Shown here piece after piece: positions 3,543 through 29,268 of a stretch of 64,000 nucleotides of DNA (its first letter is position 1; each line of letters begins with the position of its first letter). The stretch lies in the NCBI GenBank assembly GCA_003220225.1, contig QHRU01000049.1:21430-85429 (forward strand), in the 5' to 3' direction. The position numbers and the translations under genes were made by a program. This stretch comes from Candidatus Rokuibacteriota bacterium (GTDB lineage Bacteria > Methylomirabilota > Methylomirabilia > Rokubacteriales > CSP1-6). The notes beneath the pieces were generated by a model. That model did not search any database. It saw only the letters and a list, made by a program, of their open reading frames with translations, and was not told the DNA's origin.

Positions 3543-4064
3543 CTACGGTCGCACGACGAGGCGCGGGTGCCGCCGCCAGAAGTAGGCGGACATCGCGCCC
3601 GCCGCCAGCAGATTCGCGACGAGCACCGAAGGCCAGGGGATCAGGCGCAGCACGGGCGCCGCGAAGACGAGCGCGGCGGCGACGAAGCCGAACTCGAAGA
3701 CGACGGCGAACAGGAGCAGCCCGAAGCCCCACGACGGATTGCGCTCCACCATCCCGAGCAGCCGCGACGCGATACCGCCCAGCGCCGCGAAGACCAGCAT
3801 GTGGACCCACGTGAACATGCCGACCATCTCCAGCGAGACGGAGAGCGTCTCGGGCGAGCCGAGTGCCCCGCGCCGGAAGATGGCGGTGCCGAGCACGGTC
3901 GGCGTGTAGAGCGGGTGCCCGGCGGCGGTGTCGAGCAGCAGGAACCAGACCGCCACGGTGGCGGCGCCGATGACACCGGCGATCATGCCCTCCTGGTAGA
4001 GGCGCGCGGTGTCGGGGACGGGGTCGGACAGGGCGTCGACGGTCGGGGTCACGCGAGCGGCCAT
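3543..4064 (-). CDS. hypothetical integral membrane protein (4-5 TM)
   Basis: ORF with strong GC3 bias and several hydrophobic helices. No recognisable catalytic motif. Confidence 0.5.
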   Translation of the reverse strand: MAARVTPTVDALSDPVPDTARLYQEGMIAGVIGAATVAVWFLLLDTAAGHPLYTPTVLGTAIFRRGALGSPETLSVSLEMVGMFTWVHMLVFAALGGIASRLLGMVERNPSWGFGLLLFAVVFEFGFVAAALVFAAPVLRLIPWPSVLVANLLAAGAMSAYFWRRHPRLVVRP

Positions 4065-4330: not shown

Positions 4331-5653
4331 TTACCTCGTCGGCGGGTCCGTCTCGCTCGAGCGTCGCAAGTCGAGCATCGGCGGCAGGTTCGGCGCGGTG
4401 TCCAGATCCTCGAGCCGGGTGATCTGCGTCATGTGCCCGACGATCTCCCCGATACGTGCCGCGGCGGCGAGGATGCGGTCGAAGCGATGGCGCTCCGCGA
4501 CACCGGGTCGGTCCGCGAGTATCTGGGCGTGCCCGACGATGATCGCCAGGGGATTGTTGATCTCGTGAGCGGCGGCGTTCGCCAATCGCGTCACCGCCCG
4601 AAGCCCTTGAGCACGCACCTCCGCCTCGAGCAGTCGCGCGTTCTGCAGGAGAATCGAGGCTTGCTGGCCGATCGCCTGGAGAAGCGCGATCTCCCCCACC
4701 GACAAGCGGCGGGGCTGCGTCCACCAGACGAGGTGCAGGACGCCGGAGACCTGGGCGCCGCCGAGCAGGGGAATGAACGCGCAGGAGCGATGGGGGAATC
4801 GCGCGAAAAAGCTGTTGGCGAACCGCGCGTCGTTCGGCGCGTCGTCGCTCCACACGACCTGGCCTTGCTCGAGCAGGGCGTCGCTGAAGCGCGCGTCCAC
4901 GAGGGGCAACCGCGCCTCCCGGAGTCCCTCACGCACCGCCTCCGGGATGTGGTAGCCGGCGACGGGCGACACCTCGGCGCGCTGACGGTCGATCACGTAC
5001 GCCGCCACGGTGTCGGCGCCGGTCAGGCGACCGAGCTCGCGACAGATCAGCCGCAGCGCGCCGGTGAGATCGCTGGTGGCGCCGAGGATTCCTGCGACGG
5101 ACACCAGCGCGGCCATCTCGCGGACCCGGGCGTCGAGCGCGCTGCGGCTGGCTTCGAGCTCCTCGCGCTGCCGGCGCGCCTCGTTCTGTCGGCGAGCCTC
5201 CTCGAGCACGGCCGCGGCCTGCCCGACGAAACCCGCCACACCCTTCCGCTGGGTCGCCGTCAGCTCGATCGGAGCCCGGGCGTCGAGCGCCAGGACCCCG
5301 AGGAGCCGCCCGTCAACCACCAGCGGTGCGCCGGAGAAGCTCGCAAGACCGTGACTCTTGCGCCAGTCGTGTCCGACAAAACGGGCATCGCGGAAGACGT
5401 CGGAAATCTCGAGCGGCGCGCGGTTGGCGGCGATCCATCCCACGGCGCCGACACCGTACGGGAGCGTCACCAGCGGGAGGCTCGCGGCGCCCTCGCCGAG
5501 CGCCGCGGCCACGCTCAGCGTGCGAGTGCGTTCGTCGGCCGACCACAACGTGACGAGTGCGACGCTGGTCAGCGCCGCGAGGTCGCGCGCGACGTGCTCC
5601 AGCGACGTCTTCGCCTCGGGTGGGAATTGCGCGCCGGGCGGCTCGACACTCAT
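4331..5653 (-). CDS. GAF-domain sensor protein with C-terminal HisKA (DHp) domain but no HATPase_c domain
   Basis: Start placed at the internal ATG (MSVEPPGAQ...) because the upstream 270 aa of the track ORF is high-GC artifact overlapping another gene. Two GAF-like regions, then H-box AAHEINNPLAIIVGHAQIL, then only about 70 aa before the stop. Confidence 0.7.
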   Translation of the reverse strand: MSVEPPGAQFPPEAKTSLEHVARDLAALTSVALVTLWSADERTRTLSVAAALGEGAASLPLVTLPYGVGAVGWIAANRAPLEISDVFRDARFVGHDWRKSHGLASFSGAPLVVDGRLLGVLALDARAPIELTATQRKGVAGFVGQAAAVLEEARRQNEARRQREELEASRSALDARVREMAALVSVAGILGATSDLTGALRLICRELGRLTGADTVAAYVIDRQRAEVSPVAGYHIPEAVREGLREARLPLVDARFSDALLEQGQVVWSDDAPNDARFANSFFARFPHRSCAFIPLLGGAQVSGVLHLVWWTQPRRLSVGEIALLQAIGQQASILLQNARLLEAEVRAQGLRAVTRLANAAAHEINNPLAIIVGHAQILADRPGVAERHRFDRILAAAARIGEIVGHMTQITRLEDLDTAPNLPPMLDLRRSSETDPPTR

Positions 5654-5661
5654 GCTGTCGC

Positions 5662-6810
5662 TCAGCGCGCGGCGACGCGGTCGGCGAGGCGCGCGGCGAG
5701 CCATCCGCCGGCCACGGCCGCCGCGAGCGTGAGCGCGATGCCCACGGCCATCGTCGCGGCGTCCGGATGCACGTGAGCGAGCGCCCTGGAGCCGAGCATC
5801 CGCGGCAACATGACGATCAGCAGGCCGGCGCCGAACGCGAGCGAAGCCGCGCGCGGACGGCGGCGCGCGTCGACGAGCGCCAGCAGCGCGGCGCCCACCA
5901 CCGGGAAGACGCGCGGCAGCGCGGAGCCGCCGACCGGCGTGCCGTTGCGGCGCGCCATCTCGTGCGCCACCGCGATCGGCGACGTGCCGTCGTCGGCGGC
6001 CAGCACCTCCTGGATTGTCGAGGCGGGCTGCAGCAGCGCGAAGCCCGCGCCGGCGACAGCGACGATGGAGAGCTGCGTGAGAAAGCCCAGGAGCACGACG
6101 GCCACCGGCGCCCAGCGCAGCCCGGAGAGCCGCGCGCCCAGCACCAGGCTGAACGCGAAGAGCAGCGCGGCCAGCACGGGCCACGTGAAGAAGGAGAGGC
6201 CGCCGTGGAGGAACGCGATCCGCCACGACGGATCGGTGGCGATCGCGAACGTCCCGAAGAGAAACGTGGTGGCCAGCGCCAGCGCGAAGGCCCGGGCCCA
6301 CGACCCTACCGGCCACGCCTCGCGCGCGATCAGCAGGCAGGCGAGCGTGTTGACCTGGGCGCCCAGGAGCCCGAGCAGATGCGGCGGGCTCCACAGCGTG
6401 ATGTCGGGACCGAACAGCCGGTGCGAGAGGTCGTCGATCGGCGCCGCCACGATCACGAGCGCCATGCCGAGCCACGCCAGGTGGAAGCCGCGCGTGCCGA
6501 CGAGGCCGAGGAGCCTGATCGCGCCCGGTGTGGGCCCGCGCTCGCGCGCCGTCCAGCTCTCGACGGCGATCACGCCGAGCGACACGATGACGGCCACGGC
6601 CACCGACGCGTAGATGAGGATGTGCGGCGCGATCCAGAACGAGTCGCGGCCGATCAGCACGTGCCAGCGGATGTCCCAGCCGAGCCCCCAGCCCGCGGTG
6701 AGCTTGCTCGTCAGCAAGATGCCCAGCGCGGCGCGGCGGAGGGCGACGACGTCGACGTCGGTGGCGACGCCGGGGACGGCGAGGGCGCCGGGGCGGCTCA
6801 TGGGCCGCAT
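5662..6810 (-). CDS. polytopic membrane protein of unknown function (about 10 TM)
   Basis: 382 aa, highly hydrophobic. Start overlaps the PolX stop and the end abuts the GAF sensor start, consistent with operon membership. Confidence 0.55.
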   Translation of the reverse strand: MRPMSRPGALAVPGVATDVDVVALRRAALGILLTSKLTAGWGLGWDIRWHVLIGRDSFWIAPHILIYASVAVAVIVSLGVIAVESWTARERGPTPGAIRLLGLVGTRGFHLAWLGMALVIVAAPIDDLSHRLFGPDITLWSPPHLLGLLGAQVNTLACLLIAREAWPVGSWARAFALALATTFLFGTFAIATDPSWRIAFLHGGLSFFTWPVLAALLFAFSLVLGARLSGLRWAPVAVVLLGFLTQLSIVAVAGAGFALLQPASTIQEVLAADDGTSPIAVAHEMARRNGTPVGGSALPRVFPVVGAALLALVDARRRPRAASLAFGAGLLIVMLPRMLGSRALAHVHPDAATMAVGIALTLAAAVAGGWLAARLADRVAAR

Positions 6811-20708: not shown

Positions 20709-21847
<1,139 letters not shown>

Positions 21848-21851
<4 letters not shown>

Positions 21852-22460
21852 CGCGACATCCGGCCGGATAGATCCTTGATCTGTCCGGCGCGGAGAATCG
21901 TGACCGTGAGCGTCGCGCCGGGACCCAGGCGTCGCAGCTCGTCGCGGATCTTCTCGTAGCTGGCGAGATAGCCGACGGGGATGAAGCCGAGCCCCTCGCT
22001 GCCGCCCGACTTCGAGATGTTGTGGCTCACGATGCCGATGACCTCGCCCGCGATGTCGAACATCGGACCACCGGAGTTGCCCTGGTTGATCGTCGCGGTC
22101 GTCTGGAAGAAGTCCGCGAGCGGCATCTGCTTGTACACGGTGTTGGCGCCCCAGCGGGCGCTGATCCAACCGACGCTCATCGAGTAGACGAGCCCATACG
22201 GCGCGCCGACGACGATGACCTGATCGCCGACGCGCACCGCGTCGTCCGACGAGATCAGGACGCCGGAGCCGACTTCCTTGACGACCTGCGCGCCGCCTCC
22301 CGTCGTCGCGTCACGCCCCGTGGCCCGAATGACGACGACCGACGGCTGGACCCTTCGAAACACGTCGCCGACCGTTTGTGCCGAGAGGCGCGGCGCCGGT
22401 GCGACCACCACCGCCACGACCATCGACGCCGCCAGCAGGGACGCGCGCACGCGCGTCACA
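21848..22460 (-). CDS. trypsin-like (S1C/DegP-type) peptidase domain protein, short, with signal peptide and no PDZ
   Basis: GTG start overlapping the upstream gene's stop. Signal peptide. GNSGGP serine motif. No obvious catalytic His, so possibly inactive. Confidence 0.5.
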
Positions 22461-24843
22461 CGGCCGCGGCGACGGGCTCCGGCACGCGCAGGCGATAGAC
22501 GCGCACCGGCTCCTCGACGTTGCGCAGCGGCACCTCGCCGAGGTCCTCGAGGCCGATCCGCGACGGCAGGCGCGCCGTCGTCGCCTCGCCGAGGTGGATG
22601 GCGTCGTCGCCCAGGGCGGCCAGCCGCGCGGCGACGTTGGTGACCGGCCCCGAGGCCGTGTAGGTCCAGCGCGTGCCGGCCGTGCCCTCGATCTTGGTCG
22701 CGCCGACCGCCGCCCGGCCGGAGTTCACGCCGACGTGCAGCGCGATCGGCTCGTCCAGCGGCTCGGCCGCGTTGATCTCGCGCGCGCGCCGCAGGAGGGC
22801 CAGCCCGGTGGTCACCGCGGAGCGGGCGTGGCGCCGGGGATCGGCGTCCTGGAAGATCACCATGAGCCCGTCGCCCGCCGTCTCGTTGACGTCGCCGCCA
22901 TTTTTCAGAATTTCGTCGAGGAAGGCGCCGAAGTAGCGCTCCACGAGCCGATCCACCGTGGCCGCGTCCAGGCGGCCGGCCAGCCGCGTGTAGCCGGCGA
23001 TGTCGACGAAGAGCACGGAGACGTCCGTCTCCCGCTTGGCGAGCTCCGGCGCGTCCGGCGCCTGCTCGATCAGCCGCTGCACGGTGCGCGGCACGAACTT
23101 CGACAGGCCCGCGCGGATCGACTCGAGGATCTGCACGCGGCGCAGGGCCGCCTGCAGCGCGTGGTAGGCGCGCGCGTGCTCGAGCGCCACCGCGCTCTGG
23201 GTGGCCACGATCTTGAGGATGCGCAGGTTCTCGGAGGTGTAGGGCAGGTCGCGCCGGCGCGGTCCGAGCACCAGCAGCGCGGTGAGCCGCTCGCGGAAGA
23301 CGACCGGCACCGCGACGTCGGCATCCAGCGCGTCGAGGTCGGCGAGACACGCCTGGCGGATGTCCTCCAGCTCCGGGTCGGCCAGCAGCGTCTCGCGCGA
23401 CAGCGGCTCGCGCCGGCCGGCCAGGCACGTGGCGAGCACGGCCTGGGCCGCGAGCCCGTCGCCGCCCCCCACGCGTCGGAACGCGCCGCGCTCGTCATCG
23501 GCGAGCAACAGCGTCACGCGCTCGGGATGCAGGATCCCGTCGACGGTGCCCCCGATCAGCGCGGCCAGGCGATCGAGCTCGAGGGTCGTGGTCATGGCGT
23601 CGGCCAGCCGCGCGAGCGCCTGCCCGGAGTCGTAGCGGGCCCGGAAGAAGAGCCGGTCGAGCAGCGCCTGCGTCCGCGCGTAGACGCGGTTCACCACGAG
23701 CACGACGATGAAGGCCACGAGCAGCGGCGCCACCACGCCCGACATGGCGAGGTCGAGCCGCGCGAAGAGCACGTTGAGCGAGGTCAGCAGGCCGGCGTAG
23801 CCGAGCGCCACCATGGCGGTGACCACCGAGTACACCGTGCCCGCGCGCACCACCGCGCGGATGTCGAAGAGCTGGTAGCGCACGATCGCGTACGCGACCG
23901 CCAGCGGAAACACGAACGCCAGCCGCCACACGTCGGCCAGGAATGGGATCTGCTCGTGGAGGACGACCTCGAGCGTCGTGCCGATGACGGGCACGAGGTA
24001 GCCGATGCCGAAGCCGGCGAGCAGCACGCGCGCCCGCTGGCGGATGAGCGGCGTCGAGCCGGTGCGCGCCGTGCTGCCGAGACCGACGAGCAGCTCGACC
24101 AGCGCGACCGTCCAGTAGATCGCGATCAGGCCGGCGGTGGCCGTCCAGGAGTCGCGCGACATCGGCGCCTGCAGCCAGAGCCAGAGCGCCGCTGACATGG
24201 CGTACGGCACCCACACCACTCGGGGCCAGCGCCGCGCCACGGCGGTGCGCTCGGGGAACACGAGCGCCAGGTGGGCGAACAGCGCGGGCCAGAACGTCCA
24301 CGCGAACAAGAACAGCTCGGTGAAGCGGTGCGTGCCCGAGAGGTCCCAGGAGCCGACGTTGACGACGACGGCGGTGAGACAGAAGGCGAGGAACAGCCGA
24401 GTGGTCGGGGCCCCGGGCCGCAGGAGCGCGACGAGGGCGCCGAGCCCGAGGACGAGGATACCGGACAGCAGGTTGTCGACGACGAAGTGCTTGAACGTCC
24501 GCAGCGTCATCTCGCGGCTGACGATCTCCTCCTCGACGAGCGACCCGCCGCGCACGAGGAGGTAGCGCAGCTTGGTGCCGGCGGGATAGCGCTCGACTTC
24601 GTGCTGCAGCTCGCGACAGGAGCTGACGAGGTGGCCGTTCACGGCGCGCACGAGGTCGAACGGCTCCACGGCCGTGCGCTGTCTGCCGCCGACGCCGACG
24701 AGGAGATTCTCCATCACCGGGAAGCCCGTCCACGGCTTGCCGATCCTGCGCCAGGCGTCGCGCGTCACGACGCCCATGAAGAGGACGGCGAGCACGATGA
24801 GCACAACGTAGGCAGACTTTTCGAGCCGCGTGCAGCGAGGCAT
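22456..24843 (-). CDS. membrane-bound class III adenylate/guanylate cyclase with N-terminal PDZ-like, 7TM and GAF regions
   Basis: C-terminal cyclase homology domain (FVDIAGYT...ETAGDGLM...). Upstream GAF-like segment. Multiple TM helices. Confidence 0.8.
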   Translation of the reverse strand: MPRCTRLEKSAYVVLIVLAVLFMGVVTRDAWRRIGKPWTGFPVMENLLVGVGGRQRTAVEPFDLVRAVNGHLVSSCRELQHEVERYPAGTKLRYLLVRGGSLVEEEIVSREMTLRTFKHFVVDNLLSGILVLGLGALVALLRPGAPTTRLFLAFCLTAVVVNVGSWDLSGTHRFTELFLFAWTFWPALFAHLALVFPERTAVARRWPRVVWVPYAMSAALWLWLQAPMSRDSWTATAGLIAIYWTVALVELLVGLGSTARTGSTPLIRQRARVLLAGFGIGYLVPVIGTTLEVVLHEQIPFLADVWRLAFVFPLAVAYAIVRYQLFDIRAVVRAGTVYSVVTAMVALGYAGLLTSLNVLFARLDLAMSGVVAPLLVAFIVVLVVNRVYARTQALLDRLFFRARYDSGQALARLADAMTTTLELDRLAALIGGTVDGILHPERVTLLLADDERGAFRRVGGGDGLAAQAVLATCLAGRREPLSRETLLADPELEDIRQACLADLDALDADVAVPVVFRERLTALLVLGPRRRDLPYTSENLRILKIVATQSAVALEHARAYHALQAALRRVQILESIRAGLSKFVPRTVQRLIEQAPDAPELAKRETDVSVLFVDIAGYTRLAGRLDAATVDRLVERYFGAFLDEILKNGGDVNETAGDGLMVIFQDADPRRHARSAVTTGLALLRRAREINAAEPLDEPIALHVGVNSGRAAVGATKIEGTAGTRWTYTASGPVTNVAARLAALGDDAIHLGEATTARLPSRIGLEDLGEVPLRNVEEPVRVYRLRVPEPVAAAV

Positions 24844-24881
24844 CGTCCGAGTTTACCCCAGACCGCCGCGGCGTCGAGCGC

Positions 24882-26123
24882 TCAGGCGCGCCCGACGAGG
24901 GGGCCGAAGCGCGCGAGCAGCTCGGTCTCCGAGAGGTTGCCGGCCTTGGCGAGGGCGGCCAGCGCTTCGGGGTTGGTGAAGTCCTCGGGCTTGAGGCGGA
25001 TCATGTAGGCGGACAGCGTCTGGTACATCTCGGACTCGACGTCCACGTAGCGCACGCGCACCTTGCCGGTCTTGGGATCGACCATGAGGCCGAAGGGAAT
25101 GGGCACGAGGCGGCCGGCCTGGATCGTCACCATCGCGCTGCTGCCGCCCTCGAGCAGGAAGCGCACCGCCCAGTAGCCGAGGCTGCGGCAGTACGAGATG
25201 TCGGTCGCGCCCGGCGGCGCGCAGCGCAGCTCGTAGCCCATGTCCTTGGCCACGATGGTCACGTCCACGCCGCGGCTCTTGAGGCTCGCCGTCACGCGGT
25301 CCTTGAGCACGTGGCCGATGTCCAGCTCGGCGAGCCGCACGTTGCCGTAGGCGTCGCGCTCGACGTTGCCGAGCGTGGCGAGGTCGAGCTTCTCCCCGAG
25401 CCCCTCGGAGAGGATCGCCACGCCGTGCTCGCGGCCCTGCACGCGCCGCTTGATGATGGCGCCCTCCAGCGTGTCGGCGAGGCGGTCCAGCGAGATCTGC
25501 GGCTCGGGGAACTCCTCGGCGATGAGCGTGAGCGTGGCCGCCGCCGAGCCGCCGATGCCGAGCGCCAGGTGGCCGGCGTGGCGGCCCATGACCGTGATGA
25601 AGAACCACCGCTCGGTGGTCTGCGCGTCCTGCATCAGGTTCCGGACGAGCTCCTTGCCGAGGTTGCAAGCGGTGGGAAAGCCGAAGGTGACGATGTCACC
25701 GGGCAGGGGCAGGTCGTTGTCGATCGTCTTGGGCACGTGGGCCACCGTGAGCCCGGGCACCGTCTTGGCCAGCCGCGAGGCGGAGTACGCCGTGTCGTCG
25801 CCGCCGATGGTGATGAGATGGTTCACGCCCAGCCGCTGGAGCGCGTCGCCGACCTGGTGGATGGCCTCCGCGGACTTGCTGGGGTTGGTGCGCGAGGTGC
25901 GGATGATGGAGCCGCCGTCGAAGTGGATGCGCGAGGTGTCGTTGATCTCGAGATCCACCACGTGCTGCGTGTCGCCCTGCACGAGCCACTTGAAGCCGTC
26001 GTAGCAGCCGAGCACGCGCAGCCCGTGGTTGCGCGCCTCGATGGTGGCGGCGGCGAGGACGGCGTTGATGCCCGGCGCGGGGCCGCCGCCGACGAGGATG
26101 GCCAGCGTCTTGTTCGCGCTCAC
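24882..26123 (-). CDS. pfk: 6-phosphofructokinase (group III, PPi- or ATP-dependent PFK)
   Basis: Motifs GGGPAPGINAV, GGDDT, MGRHAGHLAL and TIDNDL. Confidence 0.85.
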   Translation of the reverse strand: MSANKTLAILVGGGPAPGINAVLAAATIEARNHGLRVLGCYDGFKWLVQGDTQHVVDLEINDTSRIHFDGGSIIRTSRTNPSKSAEAIHQVGDALQRLGVNHLITIGGDDTAYSASRLAKTVPGLTVAHVPKTIDNDLPLPGDIVTFGFPTACNLGKELVRNLMQDAQTTERWFFITVMGRHAGHLALGIGGSAAATLTLIAEEFPEPQISLDRLADTLEGAIIKRRVQGREHGVAILSEGLGEKLDLATLGNVERDAYGNVRLAELDIGHVLKDRVTASLKSRGVDVTIVAKDMGYELRCAPPGATDISYCRSLGYWAVRFLLEGGSSAMVTIQAGRLVPIPFGLMVDPKTGKVRVRYVDVESEMYQTLSAYMIRLKPEDFTNPEALAALAKAGNLSETELLARFGPLVGRA

Positions 26124-26126
26124 CGC

Positions 26127-27188
26127 TCAGCGCACCTCGCCGCGCGCGGCCACCGGCCACACCGTCTCGACCTTGCCGTCGCGGACGCCGTAGACCTCGT
26201 CGACCATGTTGCTCACCACGCAGCAGTGGTTCGGCACGACCTCCACCACCTCGCCGATGGCCGGGCGCGCGCGGCACGCCGAGAGGTCCACGACGCCGTG
26301 CTCCTCGGAGAGGTTCACGACCGCGGCCTCCGGGTACTCGAGCAGGTGGCCGTAGCCGGTCACCGTGTAGAGGTCGGACGTGAAGACCTTGGTGCCCGCG
26401 TCGAGGATCGCGCGGTCGCGCGTCGGCGTGCTCACCACCGTGCAGCGCACGCGCATCGCGCAGTCGTCCCAGGTGGCGGTGCCGGAGGCCACCACCATGC
26501 GGTCGTTGTAGATGTAGGTGCCGGCGCGGTGCTCGGTGAGCTGGGGAATGTTCTGCGCGGCGAAGATCGCGGGCGTGCCCCCGCCCGAGACGACGGGCAC
26601 GGGGACGCCCGCGCGCTTGAACAGCTCGAGCGCGCGCTCCAGGAACTGGCGCGTGCCGGGCTCGCGGTTGGGGAAGGTCATGAGGCCCTCGAAGCGCAGG
26701 CCGCCCAGCCGCATGGCGGTTCGAGCCAGCTCGAGCGCCGCCTCTGGGGTCTGGACGCCGTTGCGCCCGAAGCCCGTGTCGCACTCGACGAGGAACGGGA
26801 TCTCGGTCCCCGCCGCGCGCGCCGCCTCACCGAGGCCGCGGGCGACGACCTCGTTGTCGAACACGACGGCCAGCCGCGCGAGCCGCCGCGCCAGCGCCAG
26901 CAGCCGCTCGCTCTTGGCGCGCCCGAGGACGTTGAAGGTCAGCAGCACGTCGTCGGCGACGCCGGCCTCGGTGAACACCTCGACCTCGCCGAGCTTCTGG
27001 CAGGTGATGCCCTGAGCACCGGCGGCCATCTGCATCCGGCCCAGGGCGGGAATCTTGTGCGTCTTCACGTGCGGCCGGTTGGCGATGCCGTGGCGGGCCA
27101 GGTGGTCGTGCACGCGGCGGATGTTGCGCTCCACGATGTCCAGGCGCACGGTCACCGCGGGCGTGTCGAGGTCGGTCACGAGGGCCAC
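26127..27188 (-). CDS. alanine racemase N-terminal domain protein, D-threonine aldolase / D-serine deaminase-like (DSD1 family)
   Basis: PLP-lysine region HVKTHK and fold-type III motifs. Confidence 0.68.
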   Translation of the reverse strand: MALVTDLDTPAVTVRLDIVERNIRRVHDHLARHGIANRPHVKTHKIPALGRMQMAAGAQGITCQKLGEVEVFTEAGVADDVLLTFNVLGRAKSERLLALARRLARLAVVFDNEVVARGLGEAARAAGTEIPFLVECDTGFGRNGVQTPEAALELARTAMRLGGLRFEGLMTFPNREPGTRQFLERALELFKRAGVPVPVVSGGGTPAIFAAQNIPQLTEHRAGTYIYNDRMVVASGTATWDDCAMRVRCTVVSTPTRDRAILDAGTKVFTSDLYTVTGYGHLLEYPEAAVVNLSEEHGVVDLSACRARPAIGEVVEVVPNHCCVVSNMVDEVYGVRDGKVETVWPVAARGEVR

Positions 27189-27237
27189 CGGATGAGTGAA
27201 ACACGGCCGCGCGGCGGCGACAAGCGCCGCGCGCGGC

Positions 27238-28296
27238 TCAGCGGGACGTGCCGGCGTCCGCCGCGCTGGATGCCTTGAGATCGAGCATGGGCGGCAGGTC
27301 GGCCGGCCAGTCCTGCGAGAGCTTGAGTCGGGCGAGGCTGTTCATCCGATCCAGGATCTCGGCGATACGCGCGATCGCCTCGCGGGACGCGTCGAGGCGC
27401 GGCTTCGTCTCCGGCGCCGCCGTGCGGGCGATGAGGTCGAGCTGGCCGTAGATGACGGCCAGCGGATTGTTGATCTCGTGGGCGGCGGCGTGGGCGAGGC
27501 TCGCCACGTGCTGCTGCAGCTCGGCCTGGCGCCGTGCCTCCTCCATCCGGCGGCGGTCGGTGATGTCGCGCGTGAAACCGCGCGTGCGCACGAAGTGGCC
27601 GTCCTCCCAGAGGGCGTTGGACGAGATCAGGACGTCCTTGATCGAGCCGTCCCTGGCGCGCATCCGCGCCTCCCAGGCGTCCACCGTCTCGCCGCGGCCG
27701 AGCCGCGCCAGGATCTCGGTGACCAGCTCGGGGTCGACGTGGAACTCGGCGATGTGATGCCCGACGTACTCCTCCACCGCGTAGCCGAGGAGATCCAGCT
27801 CGGCCTGGTTGGCGCGCAGGATGGTGCCGTCGGCCCCGATCCAGTGCAGGCCGATGACGGCGTTCTCGAAGAGCTCGGTCTCGGCGTTCTCGAAGAACTC
27901 GGCCAGCGTGCGCTCGCTGCGGAGCAGCGCCGCCTCGGCGTGTGCGCGCCTGGTGATGTCGAGCGCCACACCCAGCACCCCCACGATCCCCGCGCTGCCG
28001 GCCCGCCACGGCTCGACGTGGACCTGATAGACACGGCCCTCGTGGCGCAGCTCGTACACGGCGGGCACGCCGTCCAGCGCCGCGCGGTGGGCGGCCAGCG
28101 TCGGATCATCGGGGTCGCGCGTGCCGAGATAGTCGCTGAGCGACAGACCCACGACCTCGTCGGCGCCCAGCCCCAGCGCGACGAGGCCGGCGCCGCGCGC
28201 GTAGTGGAAGCACAGGTCCCGATCGGTGGCCCACACGATCGCCGGCAGCTGTTCGAGCAGCAGCCGGAAGTCGATCTCCTTCAGAGCGTCCATCAC
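27238..28296 (-). CDS. tandem-PAS sensor protein with C-terminal HisKA (DHp) domain but no HATPase_c domain (paralog of 4331-5653)
   Basis: Two PAS regions. H-box AAHEINNPLAVIYGQLDLI. About 70 aa after the H-box and ending with the same ...DLPPMLDLKASS tail as the GAF paralog. Confidence 0.7.
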   Translation of the reverse strand: MMDALKEIDFRLLLEQLPAIVWATDRDLCFHYARGAGLVALGLGADEVVGLSLSDYLGTRDPDDPTLAAHRAALDGVPAVYELRHEGRVYQVHVEPWRAGSAGIVGVLGVALDITRRAHAEAALLRSERTLAEFFENAETELFENAVIGLHWIGADGTILRANQAELDLLGYAVEEYVGHHIAEFHVDPELVTEILARLGRGETVDAWEARMRARDGSIKDVLISSNALWEDGHFVRTRGFTRDITDRRRMEEARRQAELQQHVASLAHAAAHEINNPLAVIYGQLDLIARTAAPETKPRLDASREAIARIAEILDRMNSLARLKLSQDWPADLPPMLDLKASSAADAGTSR

Positions 28297-28397
28297 TCGA
28301 ACTACACCATCGGACCCGCGCTTCGGGAAGACGGAAAATTATTTCCCAGTTTCGCCACGGGCTGTCAGGCCACGGGTTTCTCAAACTCGGCGGGGGG

Positions 28398-28892
28398 TTA
28401 GAAATAGGCGATCAGACGCCCGCACGCGATGACGCCCACCCAGAGCCCGATCGAGAGCACGCCGTTGACGCGCGCGGCCATGGGGGCGCGGATCTCGGTG
28501 TCCCAGTCGCCCACGGTGCGGAACGGCCAGCGATGGAAGATGCCCGCGTTCAGGAACGCGGCCACGAGCAGGACGAGCTTGAGGCGCAGGGCGGGGTTCG
28601 TCGCCATCTCGGTCGCGTGGGCGGTGAACATGAGGGCGCCGGTGGGGACGACGAGCAGCAGGCTGAAGCGCGCCCACGGCAGCAGGTGACGCTCGAGCGC
28701 GCTGACGGCGAGCGGCCGCGAGCGGCCCAGCAGGCGCGCGTCGAACATGAGGGCGGCGCCGACGAGCGTCACGAAGCCGACGATGTGGACGATCTCGACG
28801 GCCGGGTAGAGCCACGTCCACTGCCGCATGGCGACCGCCGCCGCGGAAGTCTCCAGCCAGACCAGCCAGGCGGGGCCGCTGGGCGGGTGCAT
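28398..28892 (-). CDS. hypothetical membrane protein (4 TM)
   Basis: Hydrophobic ORF with GC3 bias. Paired with the upstream secreted protein. Confidence 0.5.
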   Translation of the reverse strand: MHPPSGPAWLVWLETSAAAVAMRQWTWLYPAVEIVHIVGFVTLVGAALMFDARLLGRSRPLAVSALERHLLPWARFSLLLVVPTGALMFTAHATEMATNPALRLKLVLLVAAFLNAGIFHRWPFRTVGDWDTEIRAPMAARVNGVLSIGLWVGVIACGRLIAYF

Positions 28893-28914
28893 CAGCCACC
28901 GCTCGGCGGGCGAC

Positions 28915-29268
28915 TCAACGCAGCTCGGTGGTCTTGTCGCCGATGGTGATGCGCTCGGCGCGCATCTCGCCCGGATCCGAGCGGTTGGGATAGCCGACCA
29001 CGCTCGCTTTCGTGCCGGCCTTGAGCATGTCGCGCGGCAGCCCGCGGTTTTCCATCCGGGACGGCGGCGCGAGCACCACGAGCCACGTCTTGTCCGGCGT
29101 CTCGAGCTTCACGTAGCCGTGCGGATGCTCGTAGCCGGCCTCGCGGATGACGCCGCTGAGGCTCAGGACCCGGCTCGCGTCGTAGCCGCTCCAGCCGTGG
29201 TGGGCGAGGGCGGCGGCGGGGGCCAGTACGAGCAACGTCGACACGGCGATTAGCGTGCGCGATCTCAT
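28915..29268 (-). CDS. hypothetical secreted protein (signal peptide, HHGW motif)
   Basis: Signal peptide LVLAPAAALA/HHGWSGYD. About 90 aa mature. Lies upstream of the membrane protein on the same strand. Confidence 0.5.
   Translation of the reverse strand: MRSRTLIAVSTLLVLAPAAALAHHGWSGYDASRVLSLSGVIREAGYEHPHGYVKLETPDKTWLVVLAPPSRMENRGLPRDMLKAGTKASVVGYPNRSDPGEMRAERITIGDKTTELR

Follow-up and report, generated by a model that had tools for sequence, protein, structure and literature searches.

A Rokubacterial family of sensor proteins that end in a histidine-bearing hairpin and a conserved tail, without a catalytic domain

In a 64,000 nucleotide stretch of DNA from a Candidatus Rokuibacteriota bacterium (contig QHRU01000049.1 of GenBank assembly GCA_003220225.1, forward-strand positions 21,430 to 85,429; the whole stretch is here called the window), a minus-strand gene at 27238–28296 encodes a 352 amino acid protein made up of two PAS domains, a dimerisation and histidine phosphotransfer (DHp) domain and a short C-terminal tail, with no catalytic ATP-binding (CA) domain. 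This protein (hereafter, the target) belongs to a large and coherent family that is nearly confined to a single phylum, whose tail is conserved like an active site and which includes minimal proteins consisting of DHp and tail only. These are the new elements of the present analysis. The original prediction, made from the sequence alone, gave no hint of how large the family is, of its confinement to Rokubacteria or of CA-less HisKA proteins being a category already recognised. A search of the literature found nothing specific on this family or on Rokubacteria kinases.

The target gene model is supported by the list of open reading frames (ORFs), by Pfam and by an orthologue at locus L007 (L numbers denote loci of relatives from a genome collection, P numbers individual family proteins). 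The first PAS domain (aa 9–113, 27958–28272) is the best stretch of a match to PF00989 (E=2.9e-19), whilst the second (PAS_4, aa 143–250, 27547–27870) covers the full PF08448 profile, positions 1–110 (E=6.2e-13). The DHp helical hairpin (aa 244–328, 27313–27567) is defined by structure prediction, PDB profile matches and Pfam, the HisKA match at aa 267–324 (E=1.5e-9) scoring 38.2 bits against a gathering cut-off of 26.9. Motif scanning places AAHEINNPL at aa 270–279, with the H-box HEINNPL (His273, Glu274 and Asn277) at 27460–27480, and the tail LPPMLDLKASS at aa 334–344 (27265–27297), after which come eight residues and the stop; all of these features lie on the minus strand. Pfam finds no HATPase_c domain, the catalytic domain with N, G1, F and G2 boxes, in the target at E<=0.1. 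The protein extends only 24 aa beyond the end of the hairpin and the stop codon (27238–27240) lies 50 bp from the start of the next gene on the same strand (at 27188), so that there is no space for a hidden remnant of a catalytic domain. The CA-less PAS-PAS-HisKA architecture originally proposed is therefore borne out, both by Pfam and by the end of the gene.

AAHEINNPL and LPPMLDL..SS occur at only one other site in the window, a 440 aa GAF-GAF-DHp-tail protein encoded on the minus strand at 4331–5653 (Pfam, BLASTP and family profile), with HEINNPL at 4547–4567 and the tail LPPMLDLRRSS at 4355–4387 (motif scan, minus strand) and, according to Pfam, no HATPase_c domain. A 714 aa ORF at this locus was set aside as a high-G+C open-frame artefact (window G+C is 72%), the start at 5653 being backed by a gene model based on G+C at third codon positions. 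The two proteins had been said to have the same C-terminus. They are indeed homologous there, with 44% identity across the last 101 aa (BLASTP, E=3e-17), far above a coincidence of 6–8 residues, and they have the core LPPMLDL..SS in common; the tails themselves, which read ADLPPMLDLKASS and PNLPPMLDLRRSS, are not identical. Nor is the tail coincidental low-complexity sequence, as its Asp and Ser are conserved in 99% and 97%, respectively, of 217 non-identical family members. The comparison supports the target and the 4331–5653 gene as true paralogues within one family of CA-less proteins built on DHp and tail.

How large is this family? An exact look-up of the window protein in the assembly index gave no record. 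When the C-terminal 104 aa were used as the query, the proteins retrieved were metagenomic, and every one of them stops shortly past LPPMLD[ILF]xxSS, with PAS domains, membrane helices or nothing at the N-terminus. A first profile, built from 13 C-termini and scored on 1.84 billion representative proteins (50% identity clusters), yielded 404 clusters at E<=1e-10; relaxing the threshold to E<=1e-3 raised the number to 38,424, the additional matches presumably being ordinary HisKA domains. The best 148 representatives range from 85 to 1274 aa and all but one (147/148) align through the tail; in 141 of these 147 the protein ends no more than 25 residues past the Ser-Ser (median 8 residues). HisKA was recorded by Pfam in all 148 and HATPase_c was not among the families listed. 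In a second database search, a 70-sequence profile matched 499 clusters (90% identity) at E<=1e-10, and none of the 120 clusters listed had HATPase_c. The family hidden Markov model (HMM) recovers the target at E=1.8e-44 and the paralogue at E=1e-37, the two proteins ending 2 and 1 residues past the match. On this basis, the family can be defined by the H-box AAHEINNPL, by [LV]P-x-[MI]LD[LI]-x-[RK]-S-[SAG] about 55 aa further on and by a stop within ~25 aa, all of which are found in the target. The output module thus defined runs from DHp through a ~10-residue linker to the tail, with a handful of acidic or proline-rich residues before the stop. No Pfam or NCBIfam model covers the tail; all NCBIfam matches fall far under their cut-offs, the best partial match, AtoS, scoring 62.8 bits against a cut-off of 646 bits. 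In the source databases, the relatives are annotated as 'signal transduction histidine kinase' or 'hypothetical protein [Candidatus Rokubacteria bacterium]'.

The suggestion that the family has diversified its sensory inputs holds well beyond the pair of genes on which it was based. Among the 148 representatives the inputs include PAS (72), GAF (33), REC (10), DUF4118 (7), MASE1 (6), 5TM-LYT (6), dCache (3) and HAMP (3), with some members having none at all; ordinary sensor kinases draw on the same set of inputs. At the lower end of the range are stand-alone DHp-tail proteins of ~105 aa, such as P0005. A sub-family has 75–100 aa beyond the tail (L008 9584–10540, L011 5313–7109, L017 8549–10369; P0015, P0018, P0019 and P0143), with the pattern 'LVIVAR..RYE.L...F....VIxDRRxGERRR....DRRxxDV..DL...GW.LV', to which neither Pfam nor NCBIfam has a match. 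A 384 aa stretch past the tail at L061 was rejected as a fusion, being an Arg-rich open frame in 71% G+C DNA.

In a collection of species-representative genomes, 463 loci were confirmed as relatives. Among the best 80, all tail-matching loci come from metagenome-assembled genomes (MAGs) of Candidatus Rokubacteria/Methylomirabilota, with the exception of four otherwise-labelled bins that have the same 67–72% G+C; at least six family genes are present in genome AR20. Matches outside Rokubacteria cover the DHp only and then run into a CA domain, apart from a distant Latescibacterota set. As far as genomes are concerned, the family is all but restricted to Candidatus Rokubacteria/Methylomirabilota. 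The Latescibacterota relatives are CA-less REC-REC-DHp proteins (L077 8837–10264, L083 617–1645 and L084 9131–10252) that end in 'NYCGGxNI[LMI]DLxxAS', and so a tail of the hydrophobic-(L/M/I)-D-L..(A)S type is not strictly confined to Rokubacteria.

Column statistics from the 217 family members place the tail nearly on a par with the H-box. The H-box residues are conserved at 99% (H), 99% (E), 99% (I), 100% (N), 99% (N), 97% (P) and 99% (L), the Glu at H+1 and the Asn at H+4 thus each reaching 99%. In the tail the corresponding values are L 79%, P 87%, a free position, M 75% (I 15%), L 96%, D 99%, L/I 94%, a second free position, R/K 83%, S 97% and S 69%. Columns 79–85, which link helix 2 to the tail, are variable, as are the hairpin loop and the helix 1 positions H+7, H+10, H+12 and H+14. 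Positions H+7, H+11 and H+12 are reportedly those that set partner specificity in EnvZ (work attributed to Skerker and colleagues, 2008).

Selection on the output module can be followed among the orthologues of the target, where the ratio of non-synonymous to synonymous substitution rates (dN/dS) for DHp plus tail is 0.13–0.45 in all pairwise comparisons. This range includes two lineages that have lost their sensors. In L001–L003 (L001 gene at 289–606; P0005, 105 aa) a deletion has removed the PAS region except for a short piece of PAS1 that is out of frame, whilst in L004–L006 (L004 9405–10381) the reading frame shifts within PAS2, as three assemblies show; in both, a DHp-tail ORF of 105–126 aa is intact. 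Since purifying selection persists in orthologues with no PAS or a frameshifted PAS2, the output module is functional on its own, and DHp plus tail is the selected unit among target orthologues. The same deletion and frameshift might be cited as a sign that these genes are functionless, whether as kinase genes that are decaying or truncated, as pseudogenes or as artefacts of assembly. More than 200 independent sequences, however, stop at the same place with unrelated genes after them, in a family whose members share only about 35–50% identity, and conservation of the tail equals that of the active site. Conservation, dN/dS and the uniform stop have already effectively refuted decay as an explanation.

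In an AlphaFold2 (AF2) monomer model of the last 110 aa, calculated from a 107-sequence alignment, helices span positions 2–50 and 53–86 with predicted local distance difference test (pLDDT) values of about 87–96. Values for the tail are 52–62, and the tail is therefore not fixed in the monomer. Covariation analysis (mutual information with average product correction, MI/APC) recovers the hairpin contacts 39–57 and 36–61. The best profile matches in the PDB are LvrB (8vc9, E=1.5e-8), ZraS (9jfj), KinB (3d36) and YF1/FixL (4gcz), which cover profile positions 4–74, none of them reaching the tail. In the 1.29 Mb of fetched loci no tail motif was found away from a DHp and its H-box; found only behind an H-box, the tail is not a freely portable motif.

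What follows helix 2 in canonical relatives is the pattern '..F(A/S)RP.....(P)VDLN.LL..', corresponding to the DHp-CA linker and the start of CA, and HMMER aligns the 'RRPVDLAGA' of one canonical kinase to the tail. From these alignments we infer that the tail may be a retained DHp-CA linker together with the first element of CA. In the usual DHp topology the end of helix 2 lies beside the part of helix 1 that bears the histidine, where CA and the regulator bind. In the HK853-RR468 complex the regulator is said to touch the DHp-CA linker (as reported by Casino and colleagues in 2009).

What might such a protein do? We favour, with moderate confidence and on grounds of sequence, a reading in which the target would be a signal-gated DHp phosphatase or phosphotransferase acting on response regulators, with its tail docking a partner. 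A cytoplasmic PAS-PAS sensor would here be fused to a complete DHp hairpin without a CA of its own and, as that domain is absent, the protein would not be expected to phosphorylate itself from ATP. Instead, removal of phosphate from a cognate response regulator by the dimeric DHp, by way of the Asn at H+4, would be under the control of the PAS domains. A phosphate shuttle from REC~P to His273 and on to REC, like those of Spo0B, ChpT and PhyT, is also possible. The tail, occupying the position of the DHp-CA linker and first CA element beside the catalytic face of the bundle, may be a linker element that has been turned into a docking or active-site-completing motif, the partner being one common to all paralogues, whilst the variable positions that match the EnvZ specificity sites could give each paralogue a private regulator.

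The EnvZ DHp alone reportedly has phosphatase activity (a finding credited to Zhu and colleagues, 2000). Within HisKA proteins the H+4 Asn is needed only for phosphatase activity (PMC3510030), and with these two points in hand a PAS-gated response-regulator phosphatase is the simplest function to propose. Members are also linked to phosphorelays: 10 of the 148 representatives have an N-terminal REC, the Latescibacterota relatives are REC-REC-DHp-tail proteins and hybrid kinases or REC proteins are encoded near members at L008, L011 and L032. At both L008 and L011, a PAS-DHp-tail gene of the sub-family with a C-terminal extension is followed by a REC-HisKA-HATPase_c-REC hybrid kinase. The cluster at L032 (9152–16489) comprises GAF-PAS-DHp-tail, REC(partial)-PAS-GAF-GAF, a REC-histidine kinase-REC hybrid, DUF4118-PAS-DHp-tail, MlaC and a single-domain REC. 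In view of these three loci, at least some members sit in phosphorelay-type clusters, and the REC-DHp-tail architectures and hybrid-kinase clusters support transfer from REC~P, in the reverse or forward direction, as a possible route to phospho-His.

A number of results weigh against this phosphatase or phosphotransferase reading. Neither the surroundings of the target nor the rest of the window encode a cognate response regulator, and receiver domains show no enrichment in the same-strand neighbours of family members (5/93). Willett and Kirby found the H+1 Glu to be required exclusively for kinase activity (PMC3510030); a pure phosphatase would not need this residue, and its 99% conservation favours a phosphorylated His273. 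This suggests that His273 may be phosphorylated as well. As for the tail, its proposed role comes solely from position and conservation, and its covariation signal (linker 79–84 with DHp 36–38) is weak and confounded by phylogeny. MAFFT leaves the register of the tail against the canonical linker and start of CA ambiguous, and HMMER extends a single kinase into it, for which reasons the homology with the linker and first CA element is put forward only tentatively.

Conservation of both the kinase-specific Glu and the phosphatase-specific Asn would fit with a split kinase, in which CA resides on a separate polypeptide, the tail recruits this shared subunit or donates its first CA element, and His273 is phosphorylated in trans. 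A tail that is invariant in the face of differing inputs and specificity residues is what would be expected of a docking site for one partner, and its place at the DHp-CA linker and CA start, where HMMER aligns RRPVDLAGA, points the same way. The acceptor half also keeps the HE/DxxN/T motif (as defined in PMC3591291 and PMC3510030); Amin et al. 2013 proposed just such an arrangement for HisKA-only proteins with HE/DxxN/T, and EnvZ works when split (PMC3591291). A CA-domain HMM built from 20 canonical kinases of the fetched loci, on the other hand, detected no CA ORF standing alone, either in the window or across ~0.9 Mb of Rokubacteria loci, a search of neighbourhoods that has low power unless the partner is adjacent. 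HATPase_c occurs in only 3 of the 93 same-strand neighbours, all of them complete hybrid kinases. We regard a split kinase as the main rival reading, if on the unlikely side. The sole CA-only candidate, at L041 12134–12610, was rejected as part of a frameshifted canonical kinase: at L041 11056–12610, a canonical GAF histidine kinase is apparently split by a frameshift between DHp and CA, mimicking a stand-alone CA.

It can further be imagined, although we consider it rather improbable, that dozens of CA-less sensor-DHp proteins in each Rokubacteria genome share one trans-acting partner that recognises LPxMLDLxxSS. That partner might be a catalytic ATP-binding subunit or some other enzyme, with the Asp and Ser of the tail completing its fold or active site. 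Were this so, many sensors would compete for one kinase activity whilst their response-regulator specificities stayed private.

The proximity of hybrid kinases raises a different prospect, namely that family members act as regulators through DHp-DHp contacts, combining with canonical or hybrid kinases into heterodimers or larger complexes, in the way that RetS pairs with GacS, and feeding extra signals in with no phosphoryl chemistry of their own. Members at L008, L011 and L032 directly adjoin REC-histidine kinase-REC hybrids, and cross-regulation between kinases through their DHp domains is documented (PMC8498467). A scaffold, though, needs no H, E, N, N and P conserved at 99–100% in its H-box, and for most members there is no kinase gene nearby. 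The adjoining hybrid kinases, moreover, have a different H-box (AHELNSP) and match the family profile weakly (E about 1e-8). A purely regulatory role of this kind seems to us very doubtful.

Proteins of comparable layout have been described before. Galperin et al. 2018 reported archaeal 'HisKA, no HATPase' proteins, non-enzymatic and histidine kinase-like, for which phosphoacceptor or phosphatase roles were proposed (PMC5847659). The target, with its sensor, C-terminal HisKA, conserved His and lack of HATPase_c, has the features by which that group is recognised (PMC5847659), and the two groups are alike in their PAS/GAF N-termini and C-terminal HisKA, in being present several times in a genome and in being routinely mislabelled as histidine kinases. 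The archaeal proteins, found mainly in Archaeoglobi and Methanomicrobia, are set apart by their description, in which no conserved C-terminal motif is reported; the family described here belongs to bacteria (Rokubacteria), far exceeds them in size and has the LPxMLDLxxSS tail as its defining feature. The P2CS database files CA-less HisKA proteins as incomplete kinases or phosphotransfer proteins (PMC2716373), and in the count of Amin et al. 3.66% of SMART HisKA proteins are CA-less and 1.7% also have HE/DxxN/T (PMC3591291). Such proteins have thus been counted for years, usually under the mistaken label of kinase.

The DHp of the target is clearly homologous to that of canonical PAS sensor kinases (AtoS, ZraS, NtrB, FixL and LvrB, with the H-box HEI(N/R)NPL), but those proteins carry a CA domain and the target does not. 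The histidine-carrying helical hairpin of the Spo0B/ChpT/PhyT fold is present in the AF2 monomer of the target. Spo0B and ChpT retain a CA-like domain in degenerate form and lack sensor domains, in contrast to the target, which has no CA-like domain (24 residues past the hairpin) and has the rich sensory inputs of kinases. Spo0B, ChpT and PhyT are all histidine kinase-like dimers that cannot autophosphorylate and that pass phosphate from REC to His to REC (PMC3433190, PMC5898713); PhyT is a kinase-dead phosphotransferase and phosphatase that sequesters its own regulator (PMC5898713). Acceptor and ATP-binding functions are found on different polypeptides in the split CheA3/CheA4 of Rhodobacter sphaeroides and in domains A and B of EnvZ in vitro, where, as would be the case here, the free acceptor half is a phosphatase and HE/DxxN/T is present (PMC3591291). 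CheA differs in having an Hpt-type P1 domain rather than a DHp, and no CA partner for this family was found in the searched loci.

For the tail itself, the NWETF pentapeptide of chemoreceptors, a short, invariant motif at the extreme C-terminus that recruits CheR and CheB from a flexible tether, may serve as a working analogy. The two are unrelated in sequence and family, and the tail lies only ~10 residues from the helix bundle and never occurs without a DHp in the 1.29 Mb of loci. The family amounts to a natural experiment, with hundreds of members, all common sensor types, an intact H-box, no ATPase and one extra motif, and the stand-alone members of ~105 aa, together with a tail peptide, make the question of its function directly testable. 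Rokubacteria are abundant in soil and, to our knowledge, the phylum has been recovered only in assemblies from metagenomes and single cells. Counting these genes as kinases would lead to a wrong estimate of its signalling capacity.

The genomic setting of the target is conserved but offers no partner. Downstream lies a gene (26127–27188, minus strand) for an Ala_racemase_N plus D-ser_dehydrat protein with a D-amino-acid enzyme fold, followed by PFK and GAF-adenylate/guanylate cyclase genes (22456–26123, minus strand); upstream are DUF6644, a membrane protein (28398–28892), and DUF6152 (28915–29244), also both on the minus strand. The flanks originally described, an alanine-racemase-fold enzyme and a secreted/membrane pair, are as claimed, and so is the lack of a response regulator nearby, with neither a receiver domain nor a HATPase_c ORF (the latter sought with the CA HMM) detectable across the 64 kb window. 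Across 22456–29244 the order is thus DUF6152, DUF6644, PAS sensor, D-Ser-dehydratase-like enzyme, PFK and GAF-cyclase. The closest locus, L007 (MAG AR29; 76% identity to the target over aa 5–348), and a JGI contig of 20.8 kb keep this order, and L009 has it in rearranged form; the Ala_racemase_N plus D-ser_dehydrat neighbour is also present in L001–L004, L007 and the JGI contig. No two-component partner is found in this conserved neighbourhood.

Nor was an enriched partner found among the 93 same-strand neighbours of family members as a whole (REC 5, HATPase_c 3), the commonest neighbour families, YjgF and MoCoBD, reflecting single orthologous contexts. Three short members on long contigs likewise yielded no operon partner, and an RsbR/S/T-like module 2 kb from P0256 was discounted because a divergently oriented gene separates the two. 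The paralogue in the window is flanked by predicted minus-strand genes at 3543–4052 (169 aa) and 5662–6810 (382 aa), both hydrophobic and membrane-protein-like and without a Pfam match; the 382 aa gene ends 9 bp ahead of the paralogue start and the two may be co-transcribed. Finally, one orthologous group of tail-bearing DHp genes is followed, 0–40 bp downstream, by a conserved hydrophobic ORF of ~50 aa, probably comprising two transmembrane helices ('..SLIFL.ILG.ISGVAIPGLFMA.AAPWLDWILP.R.K'), which itself lies upstream of a gene for an aldehyde-oxidase/xanthine-dehydrogenase-type molybdoenzyme. It is found at L010 4470–4619, L018 10324–10479, L019 10305–10469, L030 2036–2188, L033 10325–10480, L036 5218–5370, L043 10324–10473, L056 10306–10455 and L089 6360–6512.

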